Positions 4,391 through 40,654 are shown, numbered from the stretch's first letter. The stretch is 41,147 nt of DNA from Elusimicrobiota bacterium (GCA_043819795.1 JBDREN010000056.1:1-41147), one strand, 5' to 3'. Notes: generated from the sequence alone by a model not told the origin. A program made the numbers and translations.

Positions 4391-5318
4391 CTAGCGGGTT
4401 ACGAGCTGGGCCTTCCCCTCCAAATAGTCACGTATCCCCTCCTCGATGGAGAACCGCGCCTCGAATCCCAGCGCCGCGCGGGCGGCGGCCGGCTCGCCCT
4501 CCGTCTCGTCCTGATAGAAAGAATATGGATTGTCGAAGTACTCGGGCTCATGGGACGTCCCGAGGACCGTGTTGAGCACCTTGATGATGCGGTTGAAAGT
4601 CGCCGTTTTACCCGTGCAGACGTTGTAGACTCCGCTGGCTTCCGCCTCCGCGGACTTAAGGTTCGCCTCCACGACGTCCCGCACATAGATGAAATCGCGG
4701 AATTGCTCGCCATGCTTGAAGATGCGCGGCCGCCGTCCCGCCTCCATCTGACGGTAAAGCTGCCAGATCATGCTCGCGACCTTGCCCTTGCGGGCCTCGC
4801 GCGGGCCGTAGACGTTGAAGTAGCGCAAGCCCACCAGCCGCAACGAGGGCTCCTCCCGCAGGAAACCCGCCCCCCACGCGCTCCATCACCTTCTTCGAAA
4901 AGCCGTAGATGTTCATCGGCTCCCCGGCCTGCGTCTCCTTCATGGGGCGCGGGCCCGCGCCGTACACGCCGGCGGAAGAGGCGTAGACGACCCGCCGCAC
5001 GCCGGACTCCAGCGCGAAGGCGAGCACATTGCGGAACCCCTCCACGTTGACCTCCAGCATGCGGCGCTGGTCGGTCACCGTCGTGTCGGTGATGGCCGCC
5101 TGATGGAAGATCGTGTCCACGGCGCCGATGCGCCCGACCCACTCCCCGGGCCTGGCGATGTCGCCGGCCACCACGTCGCCGCGGTAGCCGTCCAGGTTCT
5201 CGAAATGGCCGACCGAAAAGTCATCGAGCACGACGACCTCGCGCCCCCGGCGCTCGAGCTCGAGAGCCAGGTTCGACCCGATGAAGCCGGCGCCGCCGGT
5301 GACGAGGACCCTGCTCAC
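4391..5318 (-). pseudogene. hldD: ADP-L-glycero-D-manno-heptose 6-epimerase (extended SDR), split by a single-base frameshift
   Basis: VLVTGGAGFIGSNL, FHQAAITDTT, YASSAGVYG and YGFSK lie in one frame; GLRYFNVYGPRE.RKG..ASM lies in another. Removing one base from the C6 run at 4870-4875 restores a 308-aa ORF. The GTG start overlaps the upstream TGA. May be a sequencing error. Confidence 0.8.
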
Positions 5319-5859
5319 TTGTTCGCCGCCCTCCGCTCGACGATGATCCGCAGGGGCAGCGGCTGCGCCAGGCCCATCCTGTTGACTTGCTTCATCAGCT
5401 TCTCCGGTATCCGCTCGATGCCCGCGGGAAGCCGCGGCTGCGCGTTGATGCCTATGAGAAAGAGGAAAACCTGCTTGTCCCACTCGTTGATCCCCTGGAC
5501 CTCCTTGAGGTCCTTCTCCCCCTTCTTGATGAACTTCGTGAGGGCCTTGCGGTTGTGCATGAGATAGTCCGCCAAGGCCATCGAGGACTGCATCTCGGGG
5601 ATGAACGAGAACACGCCCGCGAGGTCCGTCGCCCCGACCGCCACGAGGGCATCCATCAGGCTCAGGTTGATGACCTGAGGAGCGGCGGGGATCATCCCCT
5701 CCGCTCCCGGGCCGCCCTCCGGAGAGCCCGGCGGGACGCCCTGCCGCGCGGGCGCGCCGCTCTCCGGCCCCTGCGCCCCGGCCAGCGGCGGCGCCGCGAG
5801 GACGAGAGCCGCCGCGCACAGCGCGCCGGCGACGGCCCGCAAGCAGTGCCGCGAGCCGG

Positions 5860-10514: not shown

Positions 10515-11450
10515 ATGGTAACCTCCGCGCGCCTCATCGTGGCCGACGACGAGCCCGAGCTGCTCGTGATGATGAAGGAGGCCCTGCAGTCGCAAGGCTA
10601 CGAGGTGCGGACCGCCGCCAACGGCCAGGAAGCGATCGACCTCGTGCGCGCCGATCCGCCCGACATCGTCGTCGTGGACCTCTGGATGCCGGTCAAGGAC
10701 GGTTTCTCGGTCTGCCGGGAGCTCAAGGCCGAGCCCGAGTTCCGGCATCTGCCGATCGTGATCCTCTCGGCGTCCGGAGGCCGGGAGAACAAGATCCAGG
10801 GGCTCGACCTGGGAGCCGACGACTTCATCACCAAGCCTGTGGACATCGCCGAGCTTCGCGCGCGCATCCGTATGATCCTGCGCCGCACGCGCCAGGGCCT
10901 CGACGCGAACCCCCTGACGCGCCTGCCGGGCAACGTATCGATCCAGAACCGCATCACCGAGGCGGTCGACGCCCGCGCGCCCCTCGCCGTGCTCTACGTC
11001 GACATCAACAGCTTCAAGGCCTACAACGACGCCTACGGCTACGACGCGGGCGACCGCGTCATCCAGGCCGCCGCCGCCCTTCTGCTGCGCTGCGTGAAGA
11101 CGGCGGGCGGAAACGAGGACTTCGTCGGGCATATCGGCGGCGATGACTTCATCGTCGTCACCGACCCCTCGCGGATGGAGCGGCTGTGCGAGGAGATCGT
11201 CTCCGGCTTCGACGCGCTCGCGCCCTCCTTCTATAAGGAAAAAGACCGCGAGCGCGGCAAGATCATCTCGAAAGACAGGGCGGGCAACGTCGTCGAGTAC
11301 GCGCTCTTGTCCGTCGGCGTCGGGGTATGCCACAACAAGCTCAAGCCCCTCACCTCCTACGCCCAAGTCAGCGAGCTGGGCAGCGAGCTCAAGAAGTTCG
11401 CCAAACGCAGCCCGGGCTCCCACTACGAGATCGACCGCCGCCGCGAGTAA
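10515..11450 (+). CDS. Response regulator with GGDEF domain (REC-GGDEF, GGDDF variant)
   Basis: Intact receiver (ADDE, VVDLWMP, ITKP); DANPLTRLPGN, DINSFKAYNDAYG..AGD, HIGGDDF. Confidence 0.92.
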   Translation: MVTSARLIVADDEPELLVMMKEALQSQGYEVRTAANGQEAIDLVRADPPDIVVVDLWMPVKDGFSVCRELKAEPEFRHLPIVILSASGGRENKIQGLDLGADDFITKPVDIAELRARIRMILRRTRQGLDANPLTRLPGNVSIQNRITEAVDARAPLAVLYVDINSFKAYNDAYGYDAGDRVIQAAAALLLRCVKTAGGNEDFVGHIGGDDFIVVTDPSRMERLCEEIVSGFDALAPSFYKEKDRERGKIISKDRAGNVVEYALLSVGVGVCHNKLKPLTSYAQVSELGSELKKFAKRSPGSHYEIDRRRE

Positions 11451-11495
11451 AGAACCGACGGTCCCTGGTCAGGGGAGAAGACGCCGATGCGGAGG

Positions 11496-11669
11496 GGATG
11501 CGATGTCCCGCGCAATCCCCGTCTGGAGGGGGCCCATGCCCGCGTCCCTCCCCCCCGGGGGGTAGGGATCGCGCTTTGTAGCGGGGGGTAATCTCGCCCC
11601 CCGAACGGCAGCCCCCCCGTAGGGGGGCCCGCCGACCCGGCGCTCGGGAAGAAGCGGGACATCGCATCC
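11496..11669. repeat. Composite palindromic element with 16-bp terminal inverted repeats
   Basis: GGATGCGATGTCCCGC (11496-11511) and GCGGGACATCGCATCC (11654-11669) enclose several C-run/G-run hairpins. Confidence 0.75.
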
Positions 11670-11703
11670 AGTCCGCCCAAAAACGTCTTTCCTTATGGAT
11701 TGA

Positions 11704-11796
11704 CCTGCGTATCCTCCACTTGAAACCCCCGTCGGGCTTCTGATAGCCTGCCGCCGGTCCCCCCGAGGCGAGAGTTTCAAGTGGAGGATACGCAGG
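11704..11796. mobile_element. 93-bp MITE-like element
   Basis: Perfect 23-bp TIRs CCTGCGTATCCTCCACTTGAAAC / GTTTCAAGTGGAGGATACGCAGG, flanked by the direct repeat TGGATTGA (11696-11703 and 11797-11804). Confidence 0.85.
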
Positions 11797-11805
11797 TGGA
11801 TTGAT

Positions 11806-12510
11806 TCAGGAGTCTGCGAGGGTGTAGCCGACGCCGCGGAGGGTGCGGATGCGCTTGCCTTGCGGTCCCAGCTTCCGGCGCAGCGAGCCCACCTGCTTGT
11901 CCACGACCTCCGGGTTGACGTCGTCGGACCGCTCGCCCCAGACCCCGTCCATCAGCTGGGACCTGTCCAGGGGCCGCCCGGGATTCTCCAGGAACAGACG
12001 CAGAAGCTCGAACTCCTTGGGCGTCAGGCCTTCGAGAGCCTTCCAGCGCCCCCGAGCCTGACGCACGAGGACCTCCCAACGGCGCACGTCGACGCGCAGC
12101 CCGCCGCTCTCGAGCACTCCGGGCAAAGACAACCCGGGGCAGGTCCGCTTCAGGTGCACAAACAGCTTGTCCGCCAGGACTTCGTCGGGGGCCGAGCTCG
12201 GGAAGAAATCCATGGCCCCGGCGCCGAGAGCCTTCGCCACCGCCGGCCCCAGCAGGGCCTCTTCCTCGGCGAACACGATGACGCTTACCCCGGGTGCGTG
12301 CTCGCGCAGGCCCTTGAGCGCGGCTTGGGCGCCGCCGGAGAGAAGCCTCCAATCGATGAGCGCGAAGTCCTGTCCCTGTCCTCGGCGGCAGGCCTCGCGC
12401 TCGAGCGCCCTGAGGCCGTCCGCTCGGACGCACCTGAGGCCGAGAAAGCCGGTCACGCGCTGCCAGCGCGCCGCCTGCGCCGGGCGCGCTGTCGCGATGA
12501 ATATCCTCAT
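11806..12510 (-). CDS. OmpR/PhoB-type regulator with degenerate receiver domain
   Basis: Winged helix (LTPKEFELL..FLENPG, VDKQVGSLRRKLG, IRTLRGVGY). The receiver keeps ALIDW but lacks the acidic pocket and the conserved Lys. ATGA overlap with motB. Confidence 0.88.
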   Translation of the reverse strand: MRIFIATARPAQAARWQRVTGFLGLRCVRADGLRALEREACRRGQGQDFALIDWRLLSGGAQAALKGLREHAPGVSVIVFAEEEALLGPAVAKALGAGAMDFFPSSAPDEVLADKLFVHLKRTCPGLSLPGVLESGGLRVDVRRWEVLVRQARGRWKALEGLTPKEFELLRLFLENPGRPLDRSQLMDGVWGERSDDVNPEVVDKQVGSLRRKLGPQGKRIRTLRGVGYTLADS

Positions 12511-13202
12511 TCCTCCCGCAGCAGGCTGATCTCGATTCGGCGGTTCTTGGCCCGTCCCTCGGCCGTCGCGTTGTCGGCGACCGGGCGGTGCTCGCCGAAG
12601 CCGACTCCGGAGATGCGGGAGGAATCGACGCCGGAGCCCTCGAGCGTGCGGATCACGGCGTAAGCGCGGGCCATCGAAAGCTCCCAGTTCGAGCGGTATC
12701 GGCCGCGCCGGATCGGCACGTTGTCGGTATGGCCCTCGATCCGGATCTGGTTCCTGAGGTTCTTCATGTCCTTCGCGATGCTTTCCAGCACCGGCAGCGC
12801 CTTCGGCGTGAGCTCCGCATTACCCGAGTCGAACAGCACGCCCTCTCCCAGGTTGAGGGATATCCGCTTCACCGTCACCACCAGCTTGACCGCCTCCCCC
12901 AGCTCGCCGCCGTCGACCTTATCCTGGAGACTCTGGGAGACCAGGAGCTCCTGATCGCGCTGCTGGGCGCGCTCGGCGAGCTTGGGGTCCACCTCGCCGC
13001 CGAACACCCGCTGGATCTGGATCAAGGAGTCCTCGACCTTGTCCCGCTTGTGAATCTTGACGTCCTGGGAGAGGTTGTAGGACAGCATCAGGAGGAAGAG
13101 GATCATCAGGTAGCTCATCATGTCCCCGTAGACGATCGCCCACAGGGCATTGCGGTTCAGATGACCCTCGAGTTCCTCTTTTCGGAAGCGATAGACGGCC
13201 AT
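12507..13202 (-). CDS. motB: MotB-family stator subunit with OmpA-like peptidoglycan-binding domain
   Basis: W..YGDMMS.LMILF TM helix with the critical Asp; LFDSG.A, IEGHTDNVPI, NWELSMARA, GRAKNRRIEI. Confidence 0.9.
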   Translation of the reverse strand: MAVYRFRKEELEGHLNRNALWAIVYGDMMSYLMILFLLMLSYNLSQDVKIHKRDKVEDSLIQIQRVFGGEVDPKLAERAQQRDQELLVSQSLQDKVDGGELGEAVKLVVTVKRISLNLGEGVLFDSGNAELTPKALPVLESIAKDMKNLRNQIRIEGHTDNVPIRRGRYRSNWELSMARAYAVIRTLEGSGVDSSRISGVGFGEHRPVADNATAEGRAKNRRIEISLLREE

Positions 13203-13214
13203 GGGGTCAGCGCC

Positions 13215-13952
13215 TTATCGGAAGGCCTGCAGCCGCCGCTCCAGCACGAGGGGGACCGTCCCCTGCATCATGCCGATCACGCCCTCGACGACCATCGCCT
13301 TCATCTTGATCTCCTCCCAGAGGCGCATGCGCAGCTTGCCGGCCACCGGGATGCAGACGAAGTTCGCGAAGCTGATGCCGTAGAACGCCGCCGTGATGGC
13401 GATCGCCATCGCCGGCCCGACGGCCTCCGGATCGGCGATCTTCTGCAGGACGTCCACGATGCCGATGAGGGTCCCGATGAGCCCGAACATCGGCGAGATG
13501 ACGCCGGCGGTCCGGATCACGTTGATCACCTCGTTGGCCCGGTCCACGCCGTTGTTGACCTCGGTCTCCAGCACGCGGCGCACGAAGTCTGCGTTGTTGT
13601 ACTCGAGCGCCGTCGTGGCCGCTTCCGCGAAGAAGCCGTCGGCGATCTTCGGATCGACGTTGCGCAGCGCTCCGATGCCGTTCTTCTGCACCAGCTCGGC
13701 CGTGCGCGTGAGCACCGGCACCAGCTGGCCCGGCTGGGCGTACGGGTCCAGGCGCATTAGCGAAAGCATGGCCACGAACGTGTCGCGCACGTAGTGCATC
13801 GGAGTGTTGATGAGCATCGCGGCGGCCGTGCCGCCGAATACGATGCCCATGCTGTGGAAGTTCACGAATACGGCGCCCACCTCGCCGGTGAAGATGCCGG
13901 CCAGCACCAGCCCGATCGCGCCGCCGAGCCCGATGATTGTCGATGCGTCCAT
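13215..13952 (-). CDS. motA: MotA/PomA-family stator subunit
   Basis: MD.STIIG, IVFGGT, SPMFGLIGTLIGIV, GPAMAIAI...FYGI.FAN...PVAGKL, EGVIGM..G..P. Confidence 0.9.
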   Translation of the reverse strand: MDASTIIGLGGAIGLVLAGIFTGEVGAVFVNFHSMGIVFGGTAAAMLINTPMHYVRDTFVAMLSLMRLDPYAQPGQLVPVLTRTAELVQKNGIGALRNVDPKIADGFFAEAATTALEYNNADFVRRVLETEVNNGVDRANEVINVIRTAGVISPMFGLIGTLIGIVDVLQKIADPEAVGPAMAIAITAAFYGISFANFVCIPVAGKLRMRLWEEIKMKAMVVEGVIGMMQGTVPLVLERRLQAFR

Positions 13953-15125
13953 TCAGCTCCCCTTCCCCTTGTTGCGCTCGACCCAGGCCTGCAGGAGCGC
14001 GACCTGCTTTCCGAGCTTCTCCTGCAGCTCCGCCATGCGCTTCTGACATTCCGCGAGACGCGCCCGCAGCTCGGGGATCCTGGCCGATCCGGGCGGCTCG
14101 TCGCGCAGAGCGGCCACGGCCCGGCTCATCTCGACCTGCAGCGCGTCCCGACCCTTCAGAGAATCTACCATACTCTCCAGGGCGGCCTCCACCAGCAGCT
14201 CCGGCCCGCCCTTCTTCTGCCACTCGCGCCGGGTCTGATTGAGGGCCAGGAGGATGTCCTTCTCCCAAAGCCGGCGCGCCTTCCGCTCCCTGTCCCGCTC
14301 CTTGCGGGCCTCGTCGAGGAGGCGCTCGAGATCGGCGACGCGTCCCATGATGATCGAAAGCTCGGGGATGCGGGAGGTCTCCGGAGGGGGGACTCCCGGC
14401 GGAGGCGGGATCTGCTCGGGGGCCGGGGGTGCCGGGGGGCCGGGCTCCGGGGCCCGCTCGGACGTCGGGACGCCCGGCATCGATGGCTCCGGCGCCGAGG
14501 GCGCCTCCGTCTCCGCCTCGAGCCGGCCGAGCTGCTCGCGCAGCCGCCGCTCCAGCTCGCCCCGGCCCTCCTCGTCCTCCATGCACCGGAGGACATCCTC
14601 GGCCGGAATCATGCGCAGCTCGGCGAGGCTCAGCCTCGACTCGAGCTCGCGGATGCGCCCCTGCGCCGCGGAATACTGATCGCGAAGGGCGCGGTCCCAG
14701 GACGCGGCCCGCTGCTGCTCCCGGATGTTTCGGAACAGATCCTCGACCTCCCCCCGGGCCTTGCGCTGCGCCGCCTCCCGCTCGCGTAAAAGGAGGTTGG
14801 CGCGCAGGGCCTCTTCCTGGGCGAGCTGAAGCTTCCTTTCCAAAAGGTCCATCCGGGTCTGCAGAAACAGCGCCAGCTCGGTCGGCGGCTGCGGCGGCTG
14901 CGGCTGGGGCCGCTCCGGAGGAGCCACGACCTCCTCTTCGCCTCCGATGGGAGCCTCCTCCAGCGGCGGCGGAGCCGACATCTCCTCGATCTTGCGCTCG
15001 AGCTCCTGGATCTGCCGCTGCAGCGGCGCCAGGGCCTCCCCGGACGGCGCGGCGGCCTCGGGCGACGTCTCCTCCGGAGGCGTCTCTCCGCGCAGCGTCG
15101 ACAACAGATTATCTACTTTCGCCAC
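13953..15125 (-). CDS. Hypothetical cytoplasmic coiled-coil protein with Pro-rich linkers
   Basis: E/R/L/Q-rich heptad segments separated by Pro-rich spacers; no TM or signal peptide; its stop directly abuts the motA ATG. Confidence 0.75.
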   Translation of the reverse strand: MAKVDNLLSTLRGETPPEETSPEAAAPSGEALAPLQRQIQELERKIEEMSAPPPLEEAPIGGEEEVVAPPERPQPQPPQPPTELALFLQTRMDLLERKLQLAQEEALRANLLLREREAAQRKARGEVEDLFRNIREQQRAASWDRALRDQYSAAQGRIRELESRLSLAELRMIPAEDVLRCMEDEEGRGELERRLREQLGRLEAETEAPSAPEPSMPGVPTSERAPEPGPPAPPAPEQIPPPPGVPPPETSRIPELSIIMGRVADLERLLDEARKERDRERKARRLWEKDILLALNQTRREWQKKGGPELLVEAALESMVDSLKGRDALQVEMSRAVAALRDEPPGSARIPELRARLAECQKRMAELQEKLGKQVALLQAWVERNKGKGS

Positions 15126-15134
15126 GATATGTCC

Positions 15135-17621
15135 TTACCCCGCCTCGATCGCGGTCTCCTCCACGGCCTCGTCAAGGGGCGGCGACGTCGCGCGCTCCGC
15201 CTCGAGAGCCATGCCGCGGGGGACGGGGTTGCTGATCACTCCATCGGTGATGATCTGCATGACCGCTTCCACGACCCGCTCCTGGGCCTGCTCGCAAACG
15301 GATTCGCTCGGCCGCGAGGCTTCCATCATCTGCTCGAGGATCGCCCAGGTCTTCGGCAGCATCTGCCTCCGGGCGGCCTCCCGCATCGCCTCCTCGGCGT
15401 GGTGGAGCGCCATCGCCCAGTCCTCGATCTTGACCGTGCCGAGGACGAACGACCAGTCCCTCGGCTCGAGGAACTGGAGGTCCTCGAAGAGCAGCACCCG
15501 GCTGCGCGCCAGACGCGCCAGCTCAAGGTCGCGCGTCTCGAGCAGCTTCAAGATGTCCCTCTTCGCCTTCATGTCGGCCTGCTCGATCATCTCCAAAAGG
15601 TAGCTGCGGCCGCCGACGGCGCTCTCGAGCCGCCGCTCGAGCTCGTCTTTGACCGTGGCGACGAGGTCGGGCTCGACGAACCGGATGCTGCCGAGATGGA
15701 GGACCACCTCGCTGTAGACGGGAGTGGGAAGCTTCGAGAGGAACGCCCTCTTGACGTCCGGCCTGAGGTGCGCCACCACGAGAGCGACGTTCTCCGGGTC
15801 CTGGCGCTGCAGTATCTCGACGAGCGTGTCGACCTGCTCCGCCTTCACCTCGAAGAATATCTTGTTCCCGGGCTCGGCCGCGCCCGCCTCCCCGCCCCCC
15901 CCGCCGGCGCCGCCTTCGCCCCCGGCCCCCTCGCCGACGGCTTCGGCCCCTCCTCCCTGCCCGAACTCCATCTGCATCTGGTGCGACTGGGCCTGGGCCA
16001 TCGAGTCCATGGCCTCGGCGAGCTTCAGGAAGCAGATCGCGACGACGATCAGCGTGACCAAGGTCATCATCGTGATGAGCACGTACTTAAAGAGCAGGCT
16101 CATCGCCTCGGGCTGGTACCATATCGTCTTCCACGCGGGCGCGAACGGCGCCCGCACGATGGTCAGCGTGTCCCCCCGATCGGGCCGGACCTCGAGGATA
16201 TCCGCCACGATCCGCGAGAGCTCGTCGCCCTGCTCGACCGCGATGGTGTTGTCGAGGATGAGCGTCACGACGAGGCGCTTGACGAACGAGGTCGGGAAGG
16301 AGTTCTGGCGCTCGTAGGACTTGGCCCCCCCGAAGCCCGGCACGGGCTCGGGCATGGGAATGCCGGGCAGCAGCTCGCTGCGGCCCGCCGCCTCGGCGCC
16401 GACGTTCTGCCACAAGAAAACCGAGCCCGGCTCCGCCTCGGAGGTCGCCGCGCCGCCCTGGACGTCGAAGCGCTCGATGCGCGTGAAATCGAGGGTGGCA
16501 TCCACCACCACCCGGTACCGGCTGGGACCGAGCAGGCGCAGGAGCACGGACTCGGCCTTGGCCTCCATGGCGTGCTCGAACTTGGCCTTCTCCTCTAGCG
16601 GGATCGTCTGGGCCGACAGGGGCGCCGCCAGGCAGAGCGCCAGCAGCAGGGCATTGAGCAGCCGCCTTCCGTTAGCCAAGCGAGCGGGCTTCGTCGGGAT
16701 GCGGAACCAGAACGTCGCCCCCTTGCCGAGACCCGGCGAATCCAAGCCGATCTCGCCCTGGTGCCCGCGGACGATCTCCTGGGCGATCGCGAGCCCGAGC
16801 CCCCAGCCCTTCTTCCTCTCCTTTATCCCCTGGAACTGGGACTGGTAGAACTTCTCGAAGACGCGGCCGCGCTCCGACGGATGGATGCCGGGCCCGGTGT
16901 CCTTGACCGAGAGCGTGACCTTGCGGCCGATCACCGCGACCTTGAGCTCGACCCTCCCCCCGGCCGGCGTGAACTTGACCGCGTTGTTGAGGAAGTTCAT
17001 CAGCGCCTGCACCAGCCGGAAGCGGTCGCCGACGATTATGACCTCCGGCGGCGACTCCGGGGTGACGAACTCGACGCCGTTCTTCTCGGCGATGACGCCG
17101 ATCGCGGGGACGATGTCCTTGAGCATGCTGGGGAGGTCGAAGGAGGCCTTCTCGAGCCTCAGCTTGCCGGCCTCGATGACGGCCAGGTCGGTCAGGTCGC
17201 TCATGAGCCGGTTGATCTGGTCGGTACCCCGGACGATGTAGTCGACATACTTCTTCTGCGTCCCCTCGAGTACCTGGCGGCTGAGCATCTCGCCGAAGCC
17301 CTTGATCGACGCCAAGGGCGTGCGCACGTCGTGGACCGCCATCGAGAGGAACTTGGACTTCATGCTATTGAGCCGCTCGAGCTCCTCGTTGCTCACCCGC
17401 AGGCGCGCCGAGACCTTCTCCAGCTGCGTGCTGCGCTTCTGGACCTGGCTCTGGGCGACGGCCAATTGCGTCATGAAGTCCTGAATCTCCCGCCGGTCCT
17501 GTCGGCGCCTCTGCGAATACTTGCCGAACTGGAAGAACCCGGTCAGCTGGCTGACCACCAGCATGCTGGCCGCCAGCATCAGAAAGAGCACCGGCAACAG
17601 GCCGACGATCACGACCTCCAC
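15135..17621 (-). CDS. Fusion: membrane histidine kinase + FliF-like ring-building domain + FliG-like middle/C-terminal domains
   Basis: HisKA (AVHDVRTPL) and HATPase (NFLNNAVKFT, DTGPGI, FEKFYQ, GLGLAI). FliF-C-like segments LLGPSRYRVVVDATLDF and VKRLVVTLILD..RGDTLTIVRAPF plus a TM helix. FliG-like QDPENVALVVAHL, GG...L.EMIEQ.D, LLFEDL, WAMAL, EQAQERVVE. GGGAGG RBS before the GTG. Confidence 0.85.
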   Translation of the reverse strand: MEVVIVGLLPVLFLMLAASMLVVSQLTGFFQFGKYSQRRRQDRREIQDFMTQLAVAQSQVQKRSTQLEKVSARLRVSNEELERLNSMKSKFLSMAVHDVRTPLASIKGFGEMLSRQVLEGTQKKYVDYIVRGTDQINRLMSDLTDLAVIEAGKLRLEKASFDLPSMLKDIVPAIGVIAEKNGVEFVTPESPPEVIIVGDRFRLVQALMNFLNNAVKFTPAGGRVELKVAVIGRKVTLSVKDTGPGIHPSERGRVFEKFYQSQFQGIKERKKGWGLGLAIAQEIVRGHQGEIGLDSPGLGKGATFWFRIPTKPARLANGRRLLNALLLALCLAAPLSAQTIPLEEKAKFEHAMEAKAESVLLRLLGPSRYRVVVDATLDFTRIERFDVQGGAATSEAEPGSVFLWQNVGAEAAGRSELLPGIPMPEPVPGFGGAKSYERQNSFPTSFVKRLVVTLILDNTIAVEQGDELSRIVADILEVRPDRGDTLTIVRAPFAPAWKTIWYQPEAMSLLFKYVLITMMTLVTLIVVAICFLKLAEAMDSMAQAQSHQMQMEFGQGGGAEAVGEGAGGEGGAGGGGGEAGAAEPGNKIFFEVKAEQVDTLVEILQRQDPENVALVVAHLRPDVKRAFLSKLPTPVYSEVVLHLGSIRFVEPDLVATVKDELERRLESAVGGRSYLLEMIEQADMKAKRDILKLLETRDLELARLARSRVLLFEDLQFLEPRDWSFVLGTVKIEDWAMALHHAEEAMREAARRQMLPKTWAILEQMMEASRPSESVCEQAQERVVEAVMQIITDGVISNPVPRGMALEAERATSPPLDEAVEETAIEAG

Positions 17622-17699
17622 GGCGTCCTCCCGGCAAGGATAGAATTGCTCAAAAAGGTTATAGATTTATTAAACAACCCGGCATCTCCCATCGGCACG

Positions 17700-17875
17700 A
17701 CTCCCTCGTCAGCGGTCCCCCCGCGGGAGGATGTCAGCAGTCCCCCCGCGGGGGACTGCTCAAGCGGGGGGGCTGCCCCTCGCCGTTGGGCTCCAACGAC
17801 CATCGCTACTGACGCACGACACGACATCGGCCCCCTCCTACTCCCGCGTCCCTCCCCCCGGGGGAGAGACGCGCT
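17700..17875. repeat. Composite palindromic intergenic element related to 11496-11669
   Basis: Tandem GTCAGCRGTCCCCCCGCGGG (17708-17727, 17733-17752); hairpin CCCGCGTCCCTCCCCCCGGGGG..CGCGC shared with about 11539-11574. Confidence 0.65.
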
Positions 17876-19439
17876 ACAGGCCTTGCGCCTCCATGAACCG
17901 GCGCAGTTTCTCGTCGGCCGGGTCGAACTCGAGCGCCTTCCGGTAGGCCGCCGCCGCGCGCTGCTTATCGCCCATGCCGAAATAGGCCGAGCCGAGCCGG
18001 GTCCAGGCCTTGGCGTTGTTCGGCTCCAGCCACAGCGCCTCGCGCAGCAACTGCGCGGCCGGCGCGAACTGGCGGCGATAGACCGCCTCCACGCCGAGCT
18101 TCATCTTCAGGGCCGCCAGGCGGGCGGGCGGCAGGATCTCATCGTCCTTCTTCTCGCGTCCCGTGAGCTTCCCGACCGCGTCGAGCAGTCGCCGGTAGGC
18201 GCCCCTCCGCGGATCGGAGCCCTGGGCCGCGTGGGCCAGGAGCATCGCCCGGTCCTCCTCGTTGCCGATATAGGCCTGCACCGCCTGGTAGGCGACGAAG
18301 GCCGCGGGCGCGTTCTCCTGGAAGGCCTCCTGGTCCTCCGGATGGGTCTCGAGCTCCATGGCCTTGATGAGCCGCTTGAGCCGCTCGCCTTGCGGCTTCC
18401 ACTCCGCCCCGGAGACCCCGGGGTCGATCCCGTGCGCGGTGTCCATGTCCTGCGAGGCCTTGAGGTAGTTGCGCTTCTTGAGCTCCGCGACCGCGTTGTT
18501 GAGGTGCTCGGTCGCGTAGGCCCGCATCCTAGGCACCCGCGCGCCCTCGCGGTCCCGCGGCGAGTCGAAGCGGTAGCCGATCGAGATGCGCTGCGACATG
18601 CCGAGCTCCGAATGGTTCATGAGCGCGAAGTCTATCTTATACCTGTTCCGGAACATCAGGCCGCCCCCGAACGAGAGCGCCTCGTCGGCCATGCCCACCC
18701 GCAGCGCCGTGATGCCCCACGCGTACTCGGTGCCGACGCGGAACTCTCCGGAATCCGAGACGTCCATGGCGAGCGCCAGCGGCCCCACGATCTGGTAGGC
18801 GGCTCCGGCGCGGATCAGGGGATTGAGCTTATCGTCGGTGTCCCCCTGAGCCAGGCCGACGGCGTTGAGCGCGACCGCGCCGAGCATGAGCCTGCCGCCG
18901 AGCCAGGGGCCCCATTGGACGCCGACGTCCGCGCCGTAGAGCTTGTCCTTGGAGCCCCCCAGGTCGCGCTGCAGCATCTTCAGCTTGGCGCCCGCCGAGA
19001 GCTTGGGATGCAGGATGCCGCGCCAGCCGTGCGCGAGGCCAAGCGCCATCTCGGAGTAGCTGAAGCCGCCGGTGGGATTGTTGAACTCGTCGCGGCCCTC
19101 GGCGTCGCCGACGCCGAAACGGATCAGCTCAAACCCCCAGCCGCCCGCGCGCTTCCTCTTGTTCTGCGCGTAACCGATATAGTCGTAAGTCGCCCCCTCG
19201 AAGAGCTTCGCGCGCATGAGCGTGATCTCGCGGCTCGGCAGAAGCCCGAGCCCGGCCGGGTTGTAGTAGACCGAGGCGACGTCCCGGACCACGGCCGTGC
19301 AGGCGCTGCCCATGCCGAGAGCGCGCGCCCCCGCCCCGAAGGTGAAAAGCTCGCCGGGCTGTCCGGCCGAACCCTTGGCGAAGGCCGTGGGCATGGCCGC
19401 CGCCCAGGCGAACAAAAAGGCGGTGAGGAGCCGTAGCAC
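17874..19439 (-). CDS. PorV/FadL-like outer-membrane beta-barrel with C-terminal TPR domain
   Basis: Signal peptide (..PTAFA-K); GARALGMGSA.TAV..D..SVYYNPAGL motif; amphipathic strands ending ISIGYRF; TPR helices (ALWLEPNNAKAWTRLG, AYRKALEFDP). Start probably GTG 19439. Confidence 0.78.
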   Translation of the reverse strand: MLRLLTAFLFAWAAAMPTAFAKGSAGQPGELFTFGAGARALGMGSACTAVVRDVASVYYNPAGLGLLPSREITLMRAKLFEGATYDYIGYAQNKRKRAGGWGFELIRFGVGDAEGRDEFNNPTGGFSYSEMALGLAHGWRGILHPKLSAGAKLKMLQRDLGGSKDKLYGADVGVQWGPWLGGRLMLGAVALNAVGLAQGDTDDKLNPLIRAGAAYQIVGPLALAMDVSDSGEFRVGTEYAWGITALRVGMADEALSFGGGLMFRNRYKIDFALMNHSELGMSQRISIGYRFDSPRDREGARVPRMRAYATEHLNNAVAELKKRNYLKASQDMDTAHGIDPGVSGAEWKPQGERLKRLIKAMELETHPEDQEAFQENAPAAFVAYQAVQAYIGNEEDRAMLLAHAAQGSDPRRGAYRRLLDAVGKLTGREKKDDEILPPARLAALKMKLGVEAVYRRQFAPAAQLLREALWLEPNNAKAWTRLGSAYFGMGDKQRAAAAYRKALEFDPADEKLRRFMEAQGL

Positions 19440-19548
19440 ACTATAGTGTAACGCGCGCGCGTCCTGAAACACGAAGAGAATCCGAAGACGGGCCCATAAA
19501 AAACGCAGGCTCCGAAAGCGTTTTCCTTTAACAGCGGCTACTTCTTCG

Positions 19549-22500
19549 TCAGTGCTTTACGCCGATCTTGAGGATGACCTTGGCGCCGCCGGACCGCAGG
19601 ATGGCCAGGTAGACGCCCTTGGAGACCTTCCGGCCCGAATCGTCGGTCCCGTCCCAAGAGACGGTGTTCGAGCCGGCCAAGCCGCCGTTGGCGCCGGCCG
19701 AGTAGCTCATCTCCCGGGCCAGCCGGCCGAAGAGGCTGAAGATCTTGATCGAGACGTCGCCCGCGTCCTTGAGGACGTAGTGGATGTTCGCCTGCCCGGT
19801 GCGCGAGTCGAAGGGGTTGGGATAGCTGCTCGCCGCCGAGATCGTCTCGGCCGGCAGCGATCCGAGCTGGACCTTGATCGGGTCGCTCGGGTCCCCGAGC
19901 ACTCCCGAGTTCGAGACGCTCCGTATCCGGACGAAGAGCGTCCCCCGCGGAAGGCCCGTGGCCTGGTACGAGCCGCCCGAGACCAGGTCGCTCTGCGAGA
20001 GCGCCGCGGGCCGTGCCGAGGCCGAGACCAGGGCCTGGAGCCGGCTCTCCTCGAGTGTCTTCGCGTTGTACCAGACCGGGCTATCGCCCCGCCGGTACTC
20101 GATGAGGTAGCCCATGATGCCCGAGGGGCCCCCCGGGACCACCGCCCAAGTGATAAGTAAAGTATTGCCGCCCGGGGTGACGCTCGGCGCCGGCTTTTCC
20201 GGCACCACCAGGTCCATGAGCACGCCGATCGAGATGCCGACCGGACTATCGAAGGTATCGGCCCCGATCGTGGATTGGGCCTTCACCGCGACATAGTACG
20301 TCGTACCCTGCAGCAGGGGGAAGCCCGAGGCCTCCACGTCCCTCTGGCCGGCCGCGATCGCCGTGAACGGTACCACGTCCTGCCCGCCGGGCGTGGTGCC
20401 GACCGCGTAGAAGGCGCCGGTGATATCGCCGAGCGTCACCGTCGAGGACCACACGAAGTGGAGGTACTCGAAGTTGCTGCTGAAGGGGCCGTCCACCGTC
20501 ACGACCGGCTTGGTCGGCGTCTTCGCGTCGAGGACCGTGGCCACCGACCCGTTGATGAACGGCAGGCCGACCGAGGACACGTAGTCGGGGGTCGAGACCA
20601 CGATGTCGCCGGCGTCGAAGGTCAGCTTGAGGGTGTCGCCCGCCGGGGCGAAGAGGTCCAGCTCCACGGCGAGGAAGTAGGTCTGCGTGGAGAGCCCCAC
20701 GGTCTGCGCCGACGAGAGGAACACGGCCGCGGTGTTGCCCGCGAACATCCCGCTGCCCACAGCAAGGTCGTCGGCGCTCAGGTGTCCGGAAGCGTCCGAG
20801 TCGCGGTAAAGGCGGACCGCGCTCACGCCGCCGGCCGCCAACGAGCCCAGCTGCGTCAGGCTCAAGGACTCCCACCGGACCTTGTTGCGCGAGGAGCGCG
20901 CCTCCAGCTTGGCCACCGCCGCCTCGGTGCCCTGGTTGATCCCCTCCGGTATCAGGTCCGACGCCGTCACGGTCATGCCCTCGGCCAGCTTGCTGATCCG
21001 GGAGTTCGGGTCGGACTGATACGGGAAGCCCGCGTCGAGCACCGTGTTCGGGCTCGTCACCCCCAAGGACGCGGTGGACTGCAGGATCAGCGAGAACGTG
21101 CGCTCCGGCTCGGCGAAGGGCGCGATATCCACGGTCACCAGGAAGTCCGTGGCGTTGGGCGTGATCTCCTGGTTCAAGCCCAGCACCGCGACCCCGCCGA
21201 GCAAGGTGTTCAGCCCCGAGGTGAGCTTGGAGTCCAGGTCGTCCCACTCGCCCGGGACCCTCCCGTTGTCGTGGTACACGTTGATGCGCTGGATGTCCGC
21301 GTCCGAGGCGGTGCCGCTGCTCCGGAGAGTCAGCTGCGTCCAGGTCAAGGCGTGGTCCGCGGTGTAGAGGGACAAGTTGAGCAGGACCTGGTTGGTCGCC
21401 GCCTGCTTGAGCTGGCCCGGCGCCTGGTTCGTCACGACCGCGGACATCTGCGTATTGGTCGGCTGCACGGTGCTATACTCGGACTGCATGGGAAAGGCCG
21501 AGGTGTCCACCGTGTTCGGGTTGTCAACCTTGAAGTCCGTGGCCGCGGTGATCTCGGCTCCCACCAGCTGGCCGGATCGCGCCGTGTTCTTGATGTTGTA
21601 GGTGACGAAGAAGGTCTGCGGCGAGGAGGTGATCGTCTGCGTCGCGAACTTGATCTCCGCCAGGCCCGCGCTGAAGGCCGCGGCTCCCAGGTTCTCGTCG
21701 TTGAGGATGCTCAGCGCCCCGTTCCCGTCGTCCCGGAATAGGCGCGCCACCGGAACCTCCGCGTCCTGAAGCCCCCCCGTTCGCCGCACGGTCAGCTGGG
21801 AGAAGGCCGCGCTGTAGGCCGGGGTCCAGGCCTCGACCCTCAGCATGACCACGTTGGTGTCGCCCTGGGTCACCGTCGACGGCGCCACGCTGGTCCACGC
21901 GACGGATACTTGGACCGGCGGCGGAGTGATGCTCAGGGCGTCCGAGGCCCAGAGCGCGGACGCGGTGGCCGTGGAGACGAAGTTCGGAGCGTCCACCTTG
22001 TAGTCGCTGACGTCCACGGTGCGCAGGGAGAACGACCTCCCCGGCACGGCCGTCGTGGACAGGTCCACCACCACGAAGAACCGCTTGGGCGTGGGCGTGA
22101 TCGGAGGCGCGTTGAGGGCCAGGTCCACCTCCCCGGCCTGGGTCTCGCCGAAGGTATGAGTCATCGTGGAGGCGTTGATGAGCGCGTACTGCGCGAGGTT
22201 CGCCGGGTCCCAGTCGCCTATGTCGGTCACGTCGTAGTACACCCGGACCGCGGCCACGTCCCCGTCGGTGGCGTTGCCCGCGCGGTGGATATTCAGGCTC
22301 TGCCACGAAGCGCTCGAGATGTTCGTGTTGAGCGAGAGCTCCATCATCCCGATGTTCTGCGCGCCGGGCTCCTTGCCCGCCCCCGGGGTGATGCTCCGGG
22401 AGGAGACCGTCACCTCGTTGTCGAACTGCACGATCGACGGGACGTTCGAGACGAGAGGGAACAAGACGGCGCTGTCGCCGTGGACCCTGTTGGGCGCGAT

Positions 22501-25500
22501 CAGATTGAAGCTCGCGGTCGTGGGGATCCGCGCCCCGATGCTCTCCCCGGGGACCGCGCTCGGGCTGATGTCGAGGACCACGAAGAACGTCTGGGTGCCG
22601 GCCTGGACCGTCTGGGGCGGGGTCAGGCTCACCACCGAGCTCCCCCCGCTGAAGGCGTGGACCCCGGGCGTGACCTGGACGTCCTTGGCGATGTCGAAGA
22701 GCTGGTCGTCGTCGGACCGGAAGATCCGGATGTTCTCGACGATCGACTCCGAGGCCGTGCCCATGCTCTCCACCACAAGCCCGGTCCAGTTGAAGTTGTT
22801 CTGGTCCGAGAGCACGTCCAGGCGCAGGACCGGCACGCCCTGGGCCCCCTGCTTCACGCTCCCGGGGCCGACCGGCTGCGCCTTGGTGATCAGCATGTAG
22901 TTCGTCGTCGCCTGGACCGGAGACTCGGAGGTGATGATCGGGAAGGGCGCGGACGAGACCGTGGTCAGCGCGTCCACGGCGCGGATCGAGTCCTCGTTCG
23001 TCATGGACAGCGCCAGGGTGTTGCCGGGGTTCGCCGACGGGCTGATCTGGTAGGTGATGAAGAACACGCCCGTCGTGCCGGCGGCGATGGTCTGGGTGGC
23101 GATGTCGATCGCCGCCTCCCGCGAGGCGAACGTCGCCGAGCCGACCAGGACGTCCACCGCCATGTTCAGCGGCAACCCGTCCACCGCGGCGTCGCGCCAG
23201 ATCCCGATCTCCTCGACGTCCGAATCCTGCCCGGTGCCCGGCTGGCCTATCAGGAAGCGGTCGATCCGCGCGCTCCCCACATCCACGGTCATCGTGGCCT
23301 TGAGCACGGCGTAGGACCCGCCCTGGACGAAGGCGGCCGGGACCAGGTCCTCGTATCTCACTTCGACGATGTTCGGCTGGCGGACCGTCACCGTGCTCGC
23401 GATGATCGGCGCGGTGCTGAAGATGACCGCGTCCACGAGGTTGCCGACGCGCACGTCGCTCGGCGTGGCGATCCGCACCTGGAACGCGTCGTCGAGCGCC
23501 GCGTTGTTGCCGATGTTGACCGTGAGGAAGAACCGCTCCTCCACCGTGCCCACGGTGCGCCGGGCCGGATCCGCCGTCAGGGTCAGCGTGGCCACCCCCG
23601 CGGTGAAGAAGTCGCTCCCGCCGGTCAGCTGGACGTCGTCGCCCGCGTTGAACGCCGCGTCCGCGTTGTCGTCGCGCCAGATGTTCACGGCCGCGATCTC
23701 GTTGGAGGCCAGGGTGCCGGTCAGATGGACCACGATGGCGTCGATGAGGCTGGTCCCCGTGTCCGTGATGGCGTCGAGGCGCAGCAAGGCGACGTTGTTC
23801 CTCCCGGGCGCGGCCGTTTCCGGCGCGAGGTCCGCATAGTCCAACGACAGGTCGTTCGGGCCGTCCGTGATCGGGACGGGGTCCACCCAAATCGGGAAAG
23901 GCCCCTCGGCCTTGAAGGGATGCTGCAGGCCGACGTCGAAGGCGTCCGCGATCTTGAGCCCGACCGTATCCCCGACGGTCGCCTCCGGAGCCATCTGATA
24001 CGCCACGAAGTACGTGCTGGTGGTCACCGTGATGATCTGGGAGTTGCCCGCGAGGTCGATGTCGGCCACGCCCGACACGAACGCCGCCCCCGCCAGGGAG
24101 GTGTCCTGCTGGGGCTCGAAGGTGTCGTTGCCGTTGGTGTCCGCGTAGACGTGCGCCTTCGTGATGTCTCCGCCGGAGGCGGTGCTGTGGGTGCTCAGCT
24201 TCACGCGCAGGGTGTCGAACCTCGAGGTCCCCGCCTTGTTGGCCAGGGTGAAGCGCAGCATGGCCCCCGACGTGTTCTGGGGGATGCCCGCGCCCGCCAC
24301 CGACGCGGTCGTGAAGAACACGCTCCCGAACGTCGAGGTCGAAAGCGAGACCGAGGGTGTCGAGACGTTCAGTAGATAATCGCGCGCGGTCACGCGCACG
24401 AAATACGTGGTCGCTTCCAGAAGACCCGTGAAAGTATAGCTCGACTTCGACGGGATATTGATGCCCGTCCCGGGAGCGATGAATCCCGACGCGGATGCCG
24501 ACGCGGAGAAATCCGTGGAGGTCGACGCCTCGAAGAGGAAGTCTTTGATCGGCCGGGAAAGGTTGTCGACCGCGGTGGCCTCCACGTACAGAGACTCCGT
24601 GGTCAGCGGCGTCAAGGAGTTTAAGACCGGCAGGGGGACCGAGGTGTCCACCAGGATAGAGAAGGGCCCCGCCTCGAGGAGGTTGCCGGCCCGGTCGGGC
24701 ACGAAGAAGCGCACCTGGTTGGTGGCGAGGCAAGCCCCGACGCCGCCGCAGGTCGCGGTGCTGCTGGACTCGATGAGCTCCAGTCCCTCGATGCGCACGG
24801 TCTCGATCCCCGTGGAGCCGGAGGCCCCGGTGAATGCCAGACGCGGCCCCGCGGAGGGAGATGGGACCGTCGAGCTGACGACGGTCCATCGGTTGCCCTC
24901 GTCGGTCGAGTAGAGCGCGAAGCTCTGCGCCGCCGCGCGCTCCACGGCGAGCTCGGCCGCGGAGAGGGCCGCGCCGAAGACCCGAAGCTCGTCGAGCATC
25001 CCGTTGAGCGGGTCCGCGCCGCCGATGCCGCTGAGCCCGTCCTCTCCGAAGCGGAACCGGGAGTCGGCCGGAGTGCCCGCCCCGGAGCAGGATGCCGCGA
25101 GCGCGCCGTTGACGTAGAGCCGGTTCTCATTGAGGCCCGGGGCCATCACGAAAGCCACGTGGCTCCAGGCCCCGGCGTTGAACTCCTGGGCGGTCGTAAG
25201 CGGGCAGCCGGCCCCGGCCGCCGCGGCCGTGCTCGCCCGGAAGGCGACCTTCCCATCAGCGGAGTCATACTGTACCCGGACCTGCTCGGAGGCCCAGATC
25301 GTGGAGGAGCCCAGGTTCAGGTTCAGCGGCTTGGCCCAGAGCGCGACCGTGAGCCCCGGGGCCCCGGCCAGGCTGAGCGTGGACACGTCGATGGAGTTGC
25401 CCGGCGTCCCGCTGAAGCGCGCGCCGTTGCCCACGTAGCCCGCTTGCCCCAGGATGTTCCCCGCGAGGCCCCGCACGACCCCGGCGTTGCCCTCCTCCGA

Positions 25501-39357: not shown

Positions 39358-39478
39358 GGACCGGGGACCCTGGACCCTTCCTTGAAGCGTAGCCCCGAAA
39401 CGCGCGCGAATCACGAACAGATCATGAAGATTCGCCCCGCCCGCGGGCGGGTGCGCCCGGGCGCTCTTTAAGGAAAGA

Positions 39479-39853
39479 CTACTTTAGGATGCGCCGCTCG
39501 AGGACCTTCACGCGGGCAAGCAGCATCTTGCTCTCGAAGGGCTTGGTGAGGTAGTCGTCGGCACCCCGCTCGTAGCCGGTGACCTGGTCGTCGATGAGCG
39601 CGCGCACCGTGAGCATGAGTATCGGCATGTCCCTGAAGCGGGCGTCGTCGCGGATCTTGCGGGTAAGCTCCATGCCGTCCATCTTCGGCATGTTCAAATC
39701 GAGCACCGCCATGTCCACCGTCCGTCGCTGCATCGCGTCCCAGGCGGCCTGCCCGTCCCTGGTGCGGACGACCGTGTAGCCCCCCTGCGTCAGGATCTCG
39801 GTGACGAGGTCCAGGAAGATCGCGTCGTCGTCGGCCACCAGGATCGTTCTCAT
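39479..39853 (-). CDS. Single-domain response regulator
   Basis: ILVADDD, VLDLNMP, LMLT, YLTKPF; GAGGAGG RBS before ATG 39853. Confidence 0.92.
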   Translation of the reverse strand: MRTILVADDDAIFLDLVTEILTQGGYTVVRTRDGQAAWDAMQRRTVDMAVLDLNMPKMDGMELTRKIRDDARFRDMPILMLTVRALIDDQVTGYERGADDYLTKPFESKMLLARVKVLERRILK

Positions 39854-39873
39854 CGCACGGCCTCCTCGCCCCG

Positions 39874-40587
39874 TCAAGACTCCCGGAACGCGTACCCGAC
39901 CCCGTAGACCGTGCGGATCATCGAGCCGCAGCGGCCGAGCTTGCGGCGGAGGGACTCGATGTGCTTGTCCACGGTCCCGGGACGGACGTCGTCGTAGTTG
40001 CCCTTCCAGACGTTCTCAAGGAAATAGTGGCGCTCCAGCACCTTGCCCGGCTGCTCCAGAAACAGCGCCAGGAACCGGAACTCCGTTCCAGTGAGCCCCC
40101 GGACCGGGCTCCAGCGGCCCCGCGCGCCCTTGATCCAGGCCTCGTGCTGGGAGCGGTCCAGCTTGAGCTCCCCGCCGGGCGATTTCAGGACGTCGAGGGC
40201 CGAGGCCAGGCTCGGCAGGATGCGGCGCAGGTGCGCTTTGAGCTTCGCCAGGAAAAGGCGGTCGTCGATATCGTCGACGAAATGGTCGTCGGCCCCGGCC
40301 TCCAGGACCCCGATGACCTTCTCGGGGCCGAGCCCCGGGCCGGACACCAGGATGACCGAGATCCCGGCCGTCCGGGACTTGAGCCGCCGCAGCGCCTCCG
40401 CGGCCCGCGCCCGCAGCGCCGCCCAGTCCACGAGGGCGATCCCCAGCCGCCTCTCGGCGGCGTCGGCCAGCAGCGCCTCGAAATCGTCGGAGACCGAGAC
40501 CTGCCAACCCTCGCGCGTCAGAAGCGTCTCCCAGCGCTTCGCCCGCGCGCTCTCCACGCCGACGATCCAGAACCCGAGGCTGGTCAT
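39874..40587 (-). CDS. OmpR/PhoB-type regulator with degenerate receiver domain; paralog of 11806-12510
   Basis: Winged helix (LTGTEFRFL..FLEQPG, VDKHIESLRRKLG, IRTVYGVGY). The receiver keeps ALVDW but lacks the DD pocket and Lys. Confidence 0.88.
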   Translation of the reverse strand: MTSLGFWIVGVESARAKRWETLLTREGWQVSVSDDFEALLADAAERRLGIALVDWAALRARAAEALRRLKSRTAGISVILVSGPGLGPEKVIGVLEAGADDHFVDDIDDRLFLAKLKAHLRRILPSLASALDVLKSPGGELKLDRSQHEAWIKGARGRWSPVRGLTGTEFRFLALFLEQPGKVLERHYFLENVWKGNYDDVRPGTVDKHIESLRRKLGRCGSMIRTVYGVGYAFRES

Positions 40588-40654
40588 GGCGTTCAGCGGC
40601 GCCCCCCGCTCACGCTCGGGCCTTCTAGACGCGCGGTATGATCGGATCGCGGCA

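Follow-up and report, generated by a model that had tools for sequence, protein, structure and literature searches.

We describe a five-gene operon on the minus strand of a 41,147-nucleotide (nt) stretch of Elusimicrobiota bacterium DNA (GCA_043819795.1 JBDREN010000056.1, here called the window; 5.0-Mb genome in 241 contigs, 90.3% complete), in which the FliF ring and FliG rotor of the flagellar motor are encoded as one chain beside the stator genes motA and motB, and which continues upstream into genes for an outer-membrane barrel and a giant surface adhesin. This module is a real, conserved machine built from known parts and is undescribed in the literature that we searched. It does not belong to the flagellar motor family, whose export, axial and switch features are absent, nor is it a canonical type IX secretion system (T9SS); it probably works like a flagellar motor and serves a T9SS-like system. 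Tentatively, and at a little under an even chance, we read it as a flagellum-type, ion-driven envelope motor that moves or tensions a T9SS-type surface adhesin. A bolder version, in which it is a surface-motility engine that free-living Elusimicrobiota assembled from flagellar and type IX components, with a MotAB-turned, one-protein FliF-FliG ring using its collar loop to grip a PorV-type barrel with tetratricopeptide repeats (TPR) and so move giant adhesins while signal peptidase frees a kinase from a polyprotein, strikes us as possible and rather unlikely. The initial annotation had described five tightly packed, co-oriented genes separated by 9, 0, 12 and -4 nt at 11806-17621, and both coordinates and gaps are exactly as it gave them. 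Each of the five open reading frames has a third-position GC content of 0.87-0.94, as expected in a 67% GC genome, which argues that all five are real genes. The genes therefore stand while the proposed extent of the unit does not, since it runs further upstream through the barrel gene (17874-19472, minus strand) and the adhesin gene (19549-39414, minus strand).

The central gene (15135-17621) encodes an 828-residue precursor comprising a histidine kinase, an internal signal peptide-like segment, the RBM3 and collar of FliF, a transmembrane helix and the middle (M) and C-terminal (C) domains of FliG. Pfam places HisKA at residues 87-152, HATPase_c at 198-311, YscJ_FliF_C at 443-493 (23.9 bits, cut-off 23.8), FliG_M at 599-669 and FliG_C at 694-796. 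When an AlphaFold model of residues 338-800 (45-row alignment; pLDDT 81, pTM 0.43) was searched with Foldseek, FliG M-C structures were recovered at a best E of 5.5e-11 and the FliF RBM3/S-ring at 2.2e-4, and a profile of the ring protein matched FliF at 2.7e-14. All five domains named in the initial annotation were thus found by Pfam, with FliG and FliF folds matched by the model, supporting its central claim of a FliF ring and FliG rotor in one chain within a non-flagellar rotor-stator module. The FliF part is limited to the periplasmic RBM3 (S-ring) and collar loop (16122-16610), and the FliG part to the M and C domains, which follow the transmembrane helix and a Gly-rich linker (15222-16106). 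We observed no YscJ_FliF match for RBM1-RBM2, the export-gate housing, in the precursor or the genome, whereas FliF of a flagellated relative scored 218.8 bits; the precursor likewise has no FliG_N match for the FliG N-terminal domain, which co-folds with FliF-C, and a low-confidence Gly-rich linker occupies the place of both. A frameshift, gene merge or assembly error was considered as the origin of the fusion and rejected, as the 24 orthologous loci comprise 21 in which kinase and ring share a single frame, 2 with separate genes and 1 that a contig end interrupts.

Closer inspection of the collar revealed a nearly invariant Leu-Pro-Gly at 16362-16370 (Leu 55/64, Pro 63/64, Gly 62/64). The motif sits in a loop with predicted disorder, and in alignment it meets the Pro-Gly found at the top of the Vibrio FliF collar. 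Two reports implicate the flexible chain of the flagellar FliF collar in holding the rod (PMC11739650; bioRxiv 10.64898/2025.12.04.692373); because there is no rod here, the loop likely binds some other partner. The ring protein is also one of a family. This genome has five FliG_C loci, all encoding signal peptide-RBM3-transmembrane-FliG proteins in open frames and three of them accompanied by motAB. A second module (G000:C218) has the order barrel-TPR, ring with a C-terminal TPR, coiled coil, motA and motB, is preceded by a gene for a 12,253-residue sorting-domain protein (G000:C218:52-36813, L037), and belongs to a class in whose other members flbD precedes motA. Another paralogous module (G000:C237, L040:6719-11446) has one motA, two motB genes and a TPR protein, keeps most of the classic torque charges and has no upstream barrel. 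A divergent ring paralogue (G000:C214, L039:3531-8481) has neither motAB nor a barrel, and downstream of it lie genes for a TPR protein, a coiled coil and an unassigned protein, followed by groES/groEL-like genes.

The kinase part of the precursor (16689-17621) consists of an N-terminal transmembrane helix, a coiled coil, HisKA with His97, and a HATPase domain; its H, N, G1 and G2 boxes are intact, and a domain scan confirmed the earlier observation that it has no sensor domain. The further proposal that the ring carries this kinase as part of one chain was not supported, given that the junction (16611-16688) reads, by its motifs, as a Sec-type internal signal peptide, with a basic n-region, a 14-residue h-region and small-x-Ala at -3/-1, followed by Gln338. 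Among the 62 closest of 71 homologue matches, 44 of 46 fused proteins have a basic stretch, a hydrophobic stretch (mean 17 residues) and small-x-Ala at -3/-1, and the strict small-x-Ala|Gln motif precedes the ring domain in 36 of the 46, compared with 4.1 after shuffling. Twelve stand-alone ring orthologues carry their own N-terminal signal followed by the same mature start. Because the motif is enriched and the split orthologues begin their mature protein at the same place, the precursor is likely a polyprotein cut by signal peptidase after Ala337, which would release the kinase from the ring. We also considered an internal start codon before the signal segment and rejected it as a general explanation: a TTG is present here, but many fused orthologues have none, nor do the orthologues share a start codon at this junction. 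The Bradyrhizobium FbcH precursor is reportedly a polyprotein as well, although our literature search returned nothing relevant.

The stator is of the flagellar type. MotA (13215-13952; Pfam MotA_ExbB) has MotA/PomA as its best solved relatives (E 1.8e-31) and matches the MotA/PomA family model at 9e-44 versus 5e-8 for TolQ, placing it nearer to MotA/PomA than to ExbB/TolQ, and Pro154 and Thr161 of its third transmembrane helix (TM3) are invariant in 52/52 loci. MotB (12507-13202; Pfam MotB_plug and OmpA) has the ion-binding Asp27, a plug and an OmpA-like peptidoglycan-binding domain, with the transmembrane Asp present in 34 of 35 aligned MotB sequences and the remaining one truncated at its N-terminus. 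In the MotB of a distant module (L124:12766-13476), LysM replaces the OmpA-like domain. A MotA tree of 39 rows (31 of 53 module and 8 flagellar sequences) separated module from flagellar MotA on a weak branch (79/43) and did not resolve the origin or direction of change. Between the ring and motA lies a gene for a cytoplasmic, 390-residue coiled-coil protein with Pro-rich linkers (13953-15125), for which we found no NCBIfam match and no ESM Atlas match at 0.9 or above; it has homologues in 16 of 20 orthologous loci, and in other paralogue classes unrelated coiled-coil genes fill the same slot.

The best-conserved partners of the operon are two upstream genes that the initial annotation had overlooked. 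The first encodes a PorV/FadL-type outer-membrane barrel with C-terminal TPR, modeled with a pLDDT of 87.7 as 14 strands followed by TPR helices. The best target-normalized TM score of the model was 0.62, to chain F of the T9SS translocon entries 6h3i and 8gl6, which we take to be PorV; TodX ranked first by E-value, and FadL/TodX barrels score alike. The even number of strands places the TPR, as a prediction from the model, on the periplasmic side. A complex prediction of the barrel TPR with the periplasmic ring domain scored 0.58 and one control 0.44, values that give no verdict. The second gene encodes a 6,621-residue adhesin with FG-GAP repeats, LamG and Fn3 domains and a C-terminal T9SS-type sorting domain (TIGR04183, 25.2 bits, cut-off 23). 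Of 20 orthologous loci, 19 have an orthologue of it upstream, and the exception has only 4.3 kb of upstream DNA.

We then examined 64 loci picked by the ring gene alone: the window and 4 paralogues from its own genome, together with 40 loci of near relatives and 19 sampled more widely in the phylum. A same-strand PorV-like barrel ending within 3.5 kb upstream was present in 57/64, compared with 49 of 3,473 genes (1.4%) genome-wide; a sorting-domain protein lay within 6 kb in 46/64, MotA in 52/64, and MotA with MotB in 49/64. These counts describe a pattern and are not a statistical test. Of the genes considered in the initial annotation, motA and motB recur beside the ring gene in most loci, the OmpR-like gene is variable, and the ATP synthase and REC-GGDEF neighbors are poorly conserved. 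The same gene order recurs on a distant metagenome contig, where the ring protein shares 35% identity with a named Saganbacteria homologue. Named ring homologues include some from Margulisbacteria and Saganbacteria; the close ones are nearly all from Elusimicrobia, as is the closest named MotA (71% identical, from a metagenome-assembled genome). A single-protein metagenome query returned 1 locus, and a word-based contig scan gave no match for the ring protein and 2 loci for MotA. Look-alike clusters in the ESM Atlas (scores 0.90-0.92), which serve as leads only, were mostly from Cloacimonadota, Bdellovibrionota and Bacteroidota.

Given that the module is assembled from flagellar homologues, we assessed whether the host could build a flagellum. 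The window had been described as having no export gate, rod, hook, filament, FliM/N or chemotaxis genes, and this absence extends to the genome: seven families (FlhA, FliP, the rod/hook N-terminus, flagellin, FliM/N, FliF RBM1-2 and CheW) had no match in the 90.3% complete assembly, while controls matched known genomes. The export gate (SctV/SctR) and SctJ ring of the type III injectisome, families shared with the flagellum, also had no match. A full flagellar set short of only fliF, fliG and motAB, which would have made these genes an ordinary motor, is thus not what the genome holds. FlhA occurs in 1 of 61 near relatives and in 4 of 151 genomes of the phylum; the one near relative (G016:C59) belongs to genus g3, in which the kinase and ring genes are split. 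The ring profile, by comparison, matched 57 of the 151 genomes, 2 of them through ordinary FliG only. The flagellated relative G122 has separate canonical fliF, fliG and motAB in addition to two modules with their own motAB, and this coexistence argues that the module is not the ordinary flagellar motor. In another genome with FlhA and modules, locus L132 (G175:C9) carries canonical fliF followed by fliG in two reading frames, reflecting either sequencing error or decay. The module occurs in 0/45 genomes of family f4 and 1/44 of family f12, both of small genome size and probably host-associated, and in 53/61 genomes outside them; its absence from families that keep SprA and PorV is as expected for an accessory surface function.

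A T9SS-like background seems widespread in the phylum. The genome encodes an SprA homologue of 1,857 residues, and a profile built from 17 such homologues matched SprA alone in the PDB (E 7e-32); Pfam SprA_N and a single-sequence PDB search both missed the protein, which the full-length TIGR model and the 17-sequence profile found. Divergent SprA matches were present in 141/151 phylum genomes, none over cut-off, and PorV-family genes in 144/151. Profiles of our own detected 30 barrels and 34 sorting-domain proteins in this genome. GldL exceeded its cut-off in 0/151 genomes, with 1 weak match, and GldM was not found in this genome, both in searches that had no positive control. Together these matches suggest a phylum-wide, T9SS-like translocon that does without GldLM. 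The SprA homologue here (G000:C134:12952-18525, L087) and those at L107-L122 are approximately 1,800 residues long, and their genes are often divergent from an lptF/lptG-like gene and precede a comF-like gene, neighbor names that were read from the sequence and not scanned.

Gene order, domain content, folds, residue patterns and distribution were observed, and the mechanism that we infer runs from cleavage and ring formation through stator engagement to barrel coupling, SprA export of the adhesin and kinase input. The 828-residue precursor would be inserted in the inner membrane and cut after Ala337, giving a tethered kinase and a ring subunit in a 1:1 ratio. The RBM3 domains would close a periplasmic S-ring with FliG-M/C beneath it; the Salmonella RBM3 alone forms a ring (PMC11739650). 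A wall-anchored MotA5B2 would push on FliG-C, with its channel residues present and the classic torque charges not kept. The collar loop, the rod grip in flagella, may by analogy hold a different partner, for which the predicted periplasmic TPR of the accompanying barrel is the simplest candidate. The adhesin would in turn leave through the divergent SprA, and its sorting domain would let the barrel retain it, by analogy with the T9SS, while the kinase would report assembly or load to some regulator. The predicted outcome is gliding-like surface movement or adhesion control, with no filament being turned.

Several observations weigh against this adhesin-moving motor. No shaft or track protein was identified, and an S-ring and a TPR together may not reach across the periplasm. 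The barrel scores 81.7 bits against PorV_fam (cut-off 90) and the SprA homologue 142.6 bits against TIGR04189 (E 8e-42, cut-off 200). The first 45 of the 64 loci supplied the sequences for the barrel, sorting-domain and Mot profiles, which favors detection there, and kin loci are not independent. No barrel was found within 3.5 kb in 7/64, including three of the genome's own five, and no MotA in 12/64 and no sorting domain in 18/64 within the DNA examined, misses that include contig ends. Six PilT paralogues exceed their cut-off in the genome, so surface movement is possible without the module. The stator-rotor interface has also diverged. The fourth transmembrane helix (TM4) Thr of solved MotA/PomA is Ala189 here (Ala 44/52, Thr 7, Ser 1; the Ala is usually preceded by Thr or Ser), the MotA positions matching E. 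coli R90/E98 are Gln/Arg, and the FliG R281/D288/D289 positions are Lys757/Gln764/Met765, with numbering taken from PMC12505986 and positions mapped from our alignments; both classic charge pairs therefore appear lost in this paralogue. Across the 52 loci, the MotA-R90 and FliG-D288/289 charges are both kept in 20 and both lost in 19; this concordance in 39/52 loci, among which kin are not independent, favors the motor reading, but the remaining 13 are discordant and break the covariation.

The divergence of the torque charges in this clade would be less troubling if the module were primarily a sensor, a view close to that of the initial annotation, with ring and stator performing no useful external work but reporting adhesin load, surface contact or the ion gradient and the kinase serving as the main output. 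The kinase is intact and has no sensor domain of its own, it is made 1:1 with the ring in 19/20 orthologous loci, its gene lies within or beside at least 33/64 modules, and receiver genes flank the operon. Yet cleavage probably separates the kinase from the ring, some orthologues encode the two in separate genes, and the FlbD-type and two-MotB module classes mostly have no adjacent kinase. The wiring to the OmpR-like regulator (11806-12510, minus strand; Pfam Trans_reg_C) claimed in the initial annotation is not supported either, since its atypical receiver keeps Asp53 only, having lost the acidic pair, Thr/Ser and Lys, the aligned orthologues are degenerate too, and the gene follows motB in only 8 of the 15 orthologous loci whose downstream flank reaches 3 kb or more (5 of 20 were dropped for short flanks). 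On the same 15 loci, the nearby ATP synthase operon and cyclic di-GMP circuit, offered as a proton motive force context, proved poorly conserved, with atpB nearby in 5/15 and an orthologue of the REC-GGDEF protein in 6/15. We regard a sensor-first role as unlikely, though a serious contender. Somewhat less probable, in our estimate, is a secretion energizer, in which the motor replaces GldLM/GldKN and pulls giant cargo through SprA or passes it to the barrel, with no movement. The phylum-wide SprA-like and PorV-family matches without GldL over cut-off fit this account, as does the size of the cargo beside the module, which is often very large (6,621 and 12,253 residues in this genome). However, families f4 and f12 keep SprA-like proteins (44/45 and 35/44 genomes) and PorV genes without the module, no rotor or motA gene was found in the sprA neighborhoods of 16 relatives or of the genome itself, and most of the 30 barrels have no adjoining module; the first two patterns argue against the module as a general power source for secretion. 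The adhesin-moving, sensor and secretion roles are not mutually exclusive, and paralogue classes may differ.

Were the ring not to rotate at all, the module could be a static anchor or an ion-gated platform, for instance for type IV pili. RBM3-like rings without motor function do exist, as SpoIIIAG illustrates, and the altered torque charges and TM4 Thr together with the six PilT paralogues would fit such a scaffold; a type IV pilus role for these genes was suggested by Uzun et al. (10.1101/2022.07.08.499144). The MotB Asp and the MotA TM3 Pro/Thr are nevertheless fully kept, and the neighbor clusters inspected contained no recurrent pilus gene cluster, leaving this a slim prospect. An ordinary flagellar motor, the decaying remnants of one and an artefact of assembly are all very improbable and largely refuted as explanations. 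In their favor, the genome is 90% complete and spread over 241 contigs, the module is made of homologues of flagellar proteins, and flbD still precedes motA in some modules; against them, six flagellar families have no match, the five paralogues have open frames, RBM1-2 and FliG-N are missing throughout, a canonical set coexists with modules in G122, and the module is diversified, with at least 150 clusters when grouped at 50% identity (E below 1e-71).

With the flagellar motor core the module shares the RBM3/S-ring, FliG M and C domains, MotA and MotB with plug and OmpA domains, the collar Pro-Gly and, in one module class, flbD before motA. It differs in being one chain with a predicted cleavable signal peptide and one transmembrane helix, in having no RBM1-2, FliF-C, FliG-N, export gate, rod, hook, filament, FliM/N or CheW, in its altered torque charges and TM4 Thr, and in occurring as up to five or six paralogues per genome. 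That one chain can form a ring is indicated by engineered FliF-FliG fusions such as the Vibrio FliFG S-ring (PDB 8z4d, matched by our ring profile), although these are laboratory constructs of flagellar proteins that retain RBM1-2. A Salmonella deletion is said to fuse FliF and FliG, and Chlorobium tepidum reportedly has a natural fusion, although our literature search did not find one. With the T9SS and gliding apparatus of Bacteroidota (SprA, PorV/SprF, SprB, GldLM, GldKN) it shares sorting-domain cargo, together with a divergent SprA homologue and PorV-like barrels that both score below cut-off, and it would likewise have a 5:2 motor and a ring; the adhesin-then-barrel order parallels sprB-sprF (PMC9127263). 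Differences are that no GldL or GldM was found here (searches without a positive control), that the ring would have an inner-membrane anchor and a cytoplasmic drive, that the barrel carries TPR, and that SprA is approximately 1,800 rather than 2,400 residues long. ExbBD-TonB, TolQR-TolA, AglRQS-Glt and ZorAB likewise use an ion-driven pentamer-dimer motor for a trans-envelope job (PMC12204202), but their stators are of non-flagellar type and work without a FliG ring. Section 13 of Uzun et al. (bioRxiv 10.1101/2022.07.08.499144) notes many motAB, flbD and fliG homologues of unclear role in flagellum-less Elusimicrobiota; it contains nothing on a FliF-FliG fusion, an operon, or a link to a barrel, an adhesin or a kinase. 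West-Roberts et al. (10.1101/2023.11.21.568195) report very large genes in Elusimicrobiota in a main text that does not mention T9SS, PorV, FliG or MotA, and Meheust et al. (10.1101/765248) contains no occurrence of gliding, MotA, FliG or a secretion system. Neither the fusion nor the operon, nor a T9SS in Elusimicrobiota, was described in the literature that we searched, which mostly did not extend to subscription papers.

The surroundings of the module hold further signaling genes. Three co-oriented receiver genes lie upstream of the adhesin (39479-40999, minus strand); 39479-39877 encodes a canonical receiver and thus a candidate phospho-acceptor, and 39874-40587 is a paralogue of the atypical OmpR-like regulator (40% identical), itself a variable accessory. 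The active-site motif of the REC-GGDEF protein (10515-11450) reads GGDDF, making its activity uncertain. Within the ATP synthase operon, atpA and atpG are separated by a gene with an NAD-dependent epimerase domain (4656-5819). The intergenic gaps at 11489-11797 and 17694-17866 carry GC-rich repeats, both inverted and direct, which include 29-nt arms that are 93% complementary and are possibly akin to repetitive extragenic palindromes or miniature inverted-repeat transposable elements. An Rfam scan of the whole window gave no match, and a promoter and terminator scan returned hits at chance level.

To our knowledge, no FliG ring driven by MotAB outside the flagellum is known, and the literature searched gave no exception. 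If the bolder version is correct, this would be the first FliG-MotAB motor acting outside the flagellum. A natural unit of three proteins would also be the smallest of its kind to generate torque, and it allows a test of whether a rotor and stator can function in the absence of export gate, rod and switch, a matter relevant to the origin or reuse of the flagellar motor. With its conserved internal signal peptide, the precursor would be a rare case of a bacterial polyprotein, one that sets the kinase:ring stoichiometry. The module also offers an answer to the question, left open by Uzun et al., of what orphan motAB and fliG genes do, including in flagellum-less magnetotactic Elusimicrobiota. 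The bolder version would further extend T9SS-like systems beyond the Fibrobacteres-Chlorobi-Bacteroidetes group to one that runs without GldLM, and our findings point to export of the very large Elusimicrobiota proteins by a T9SS-like route.

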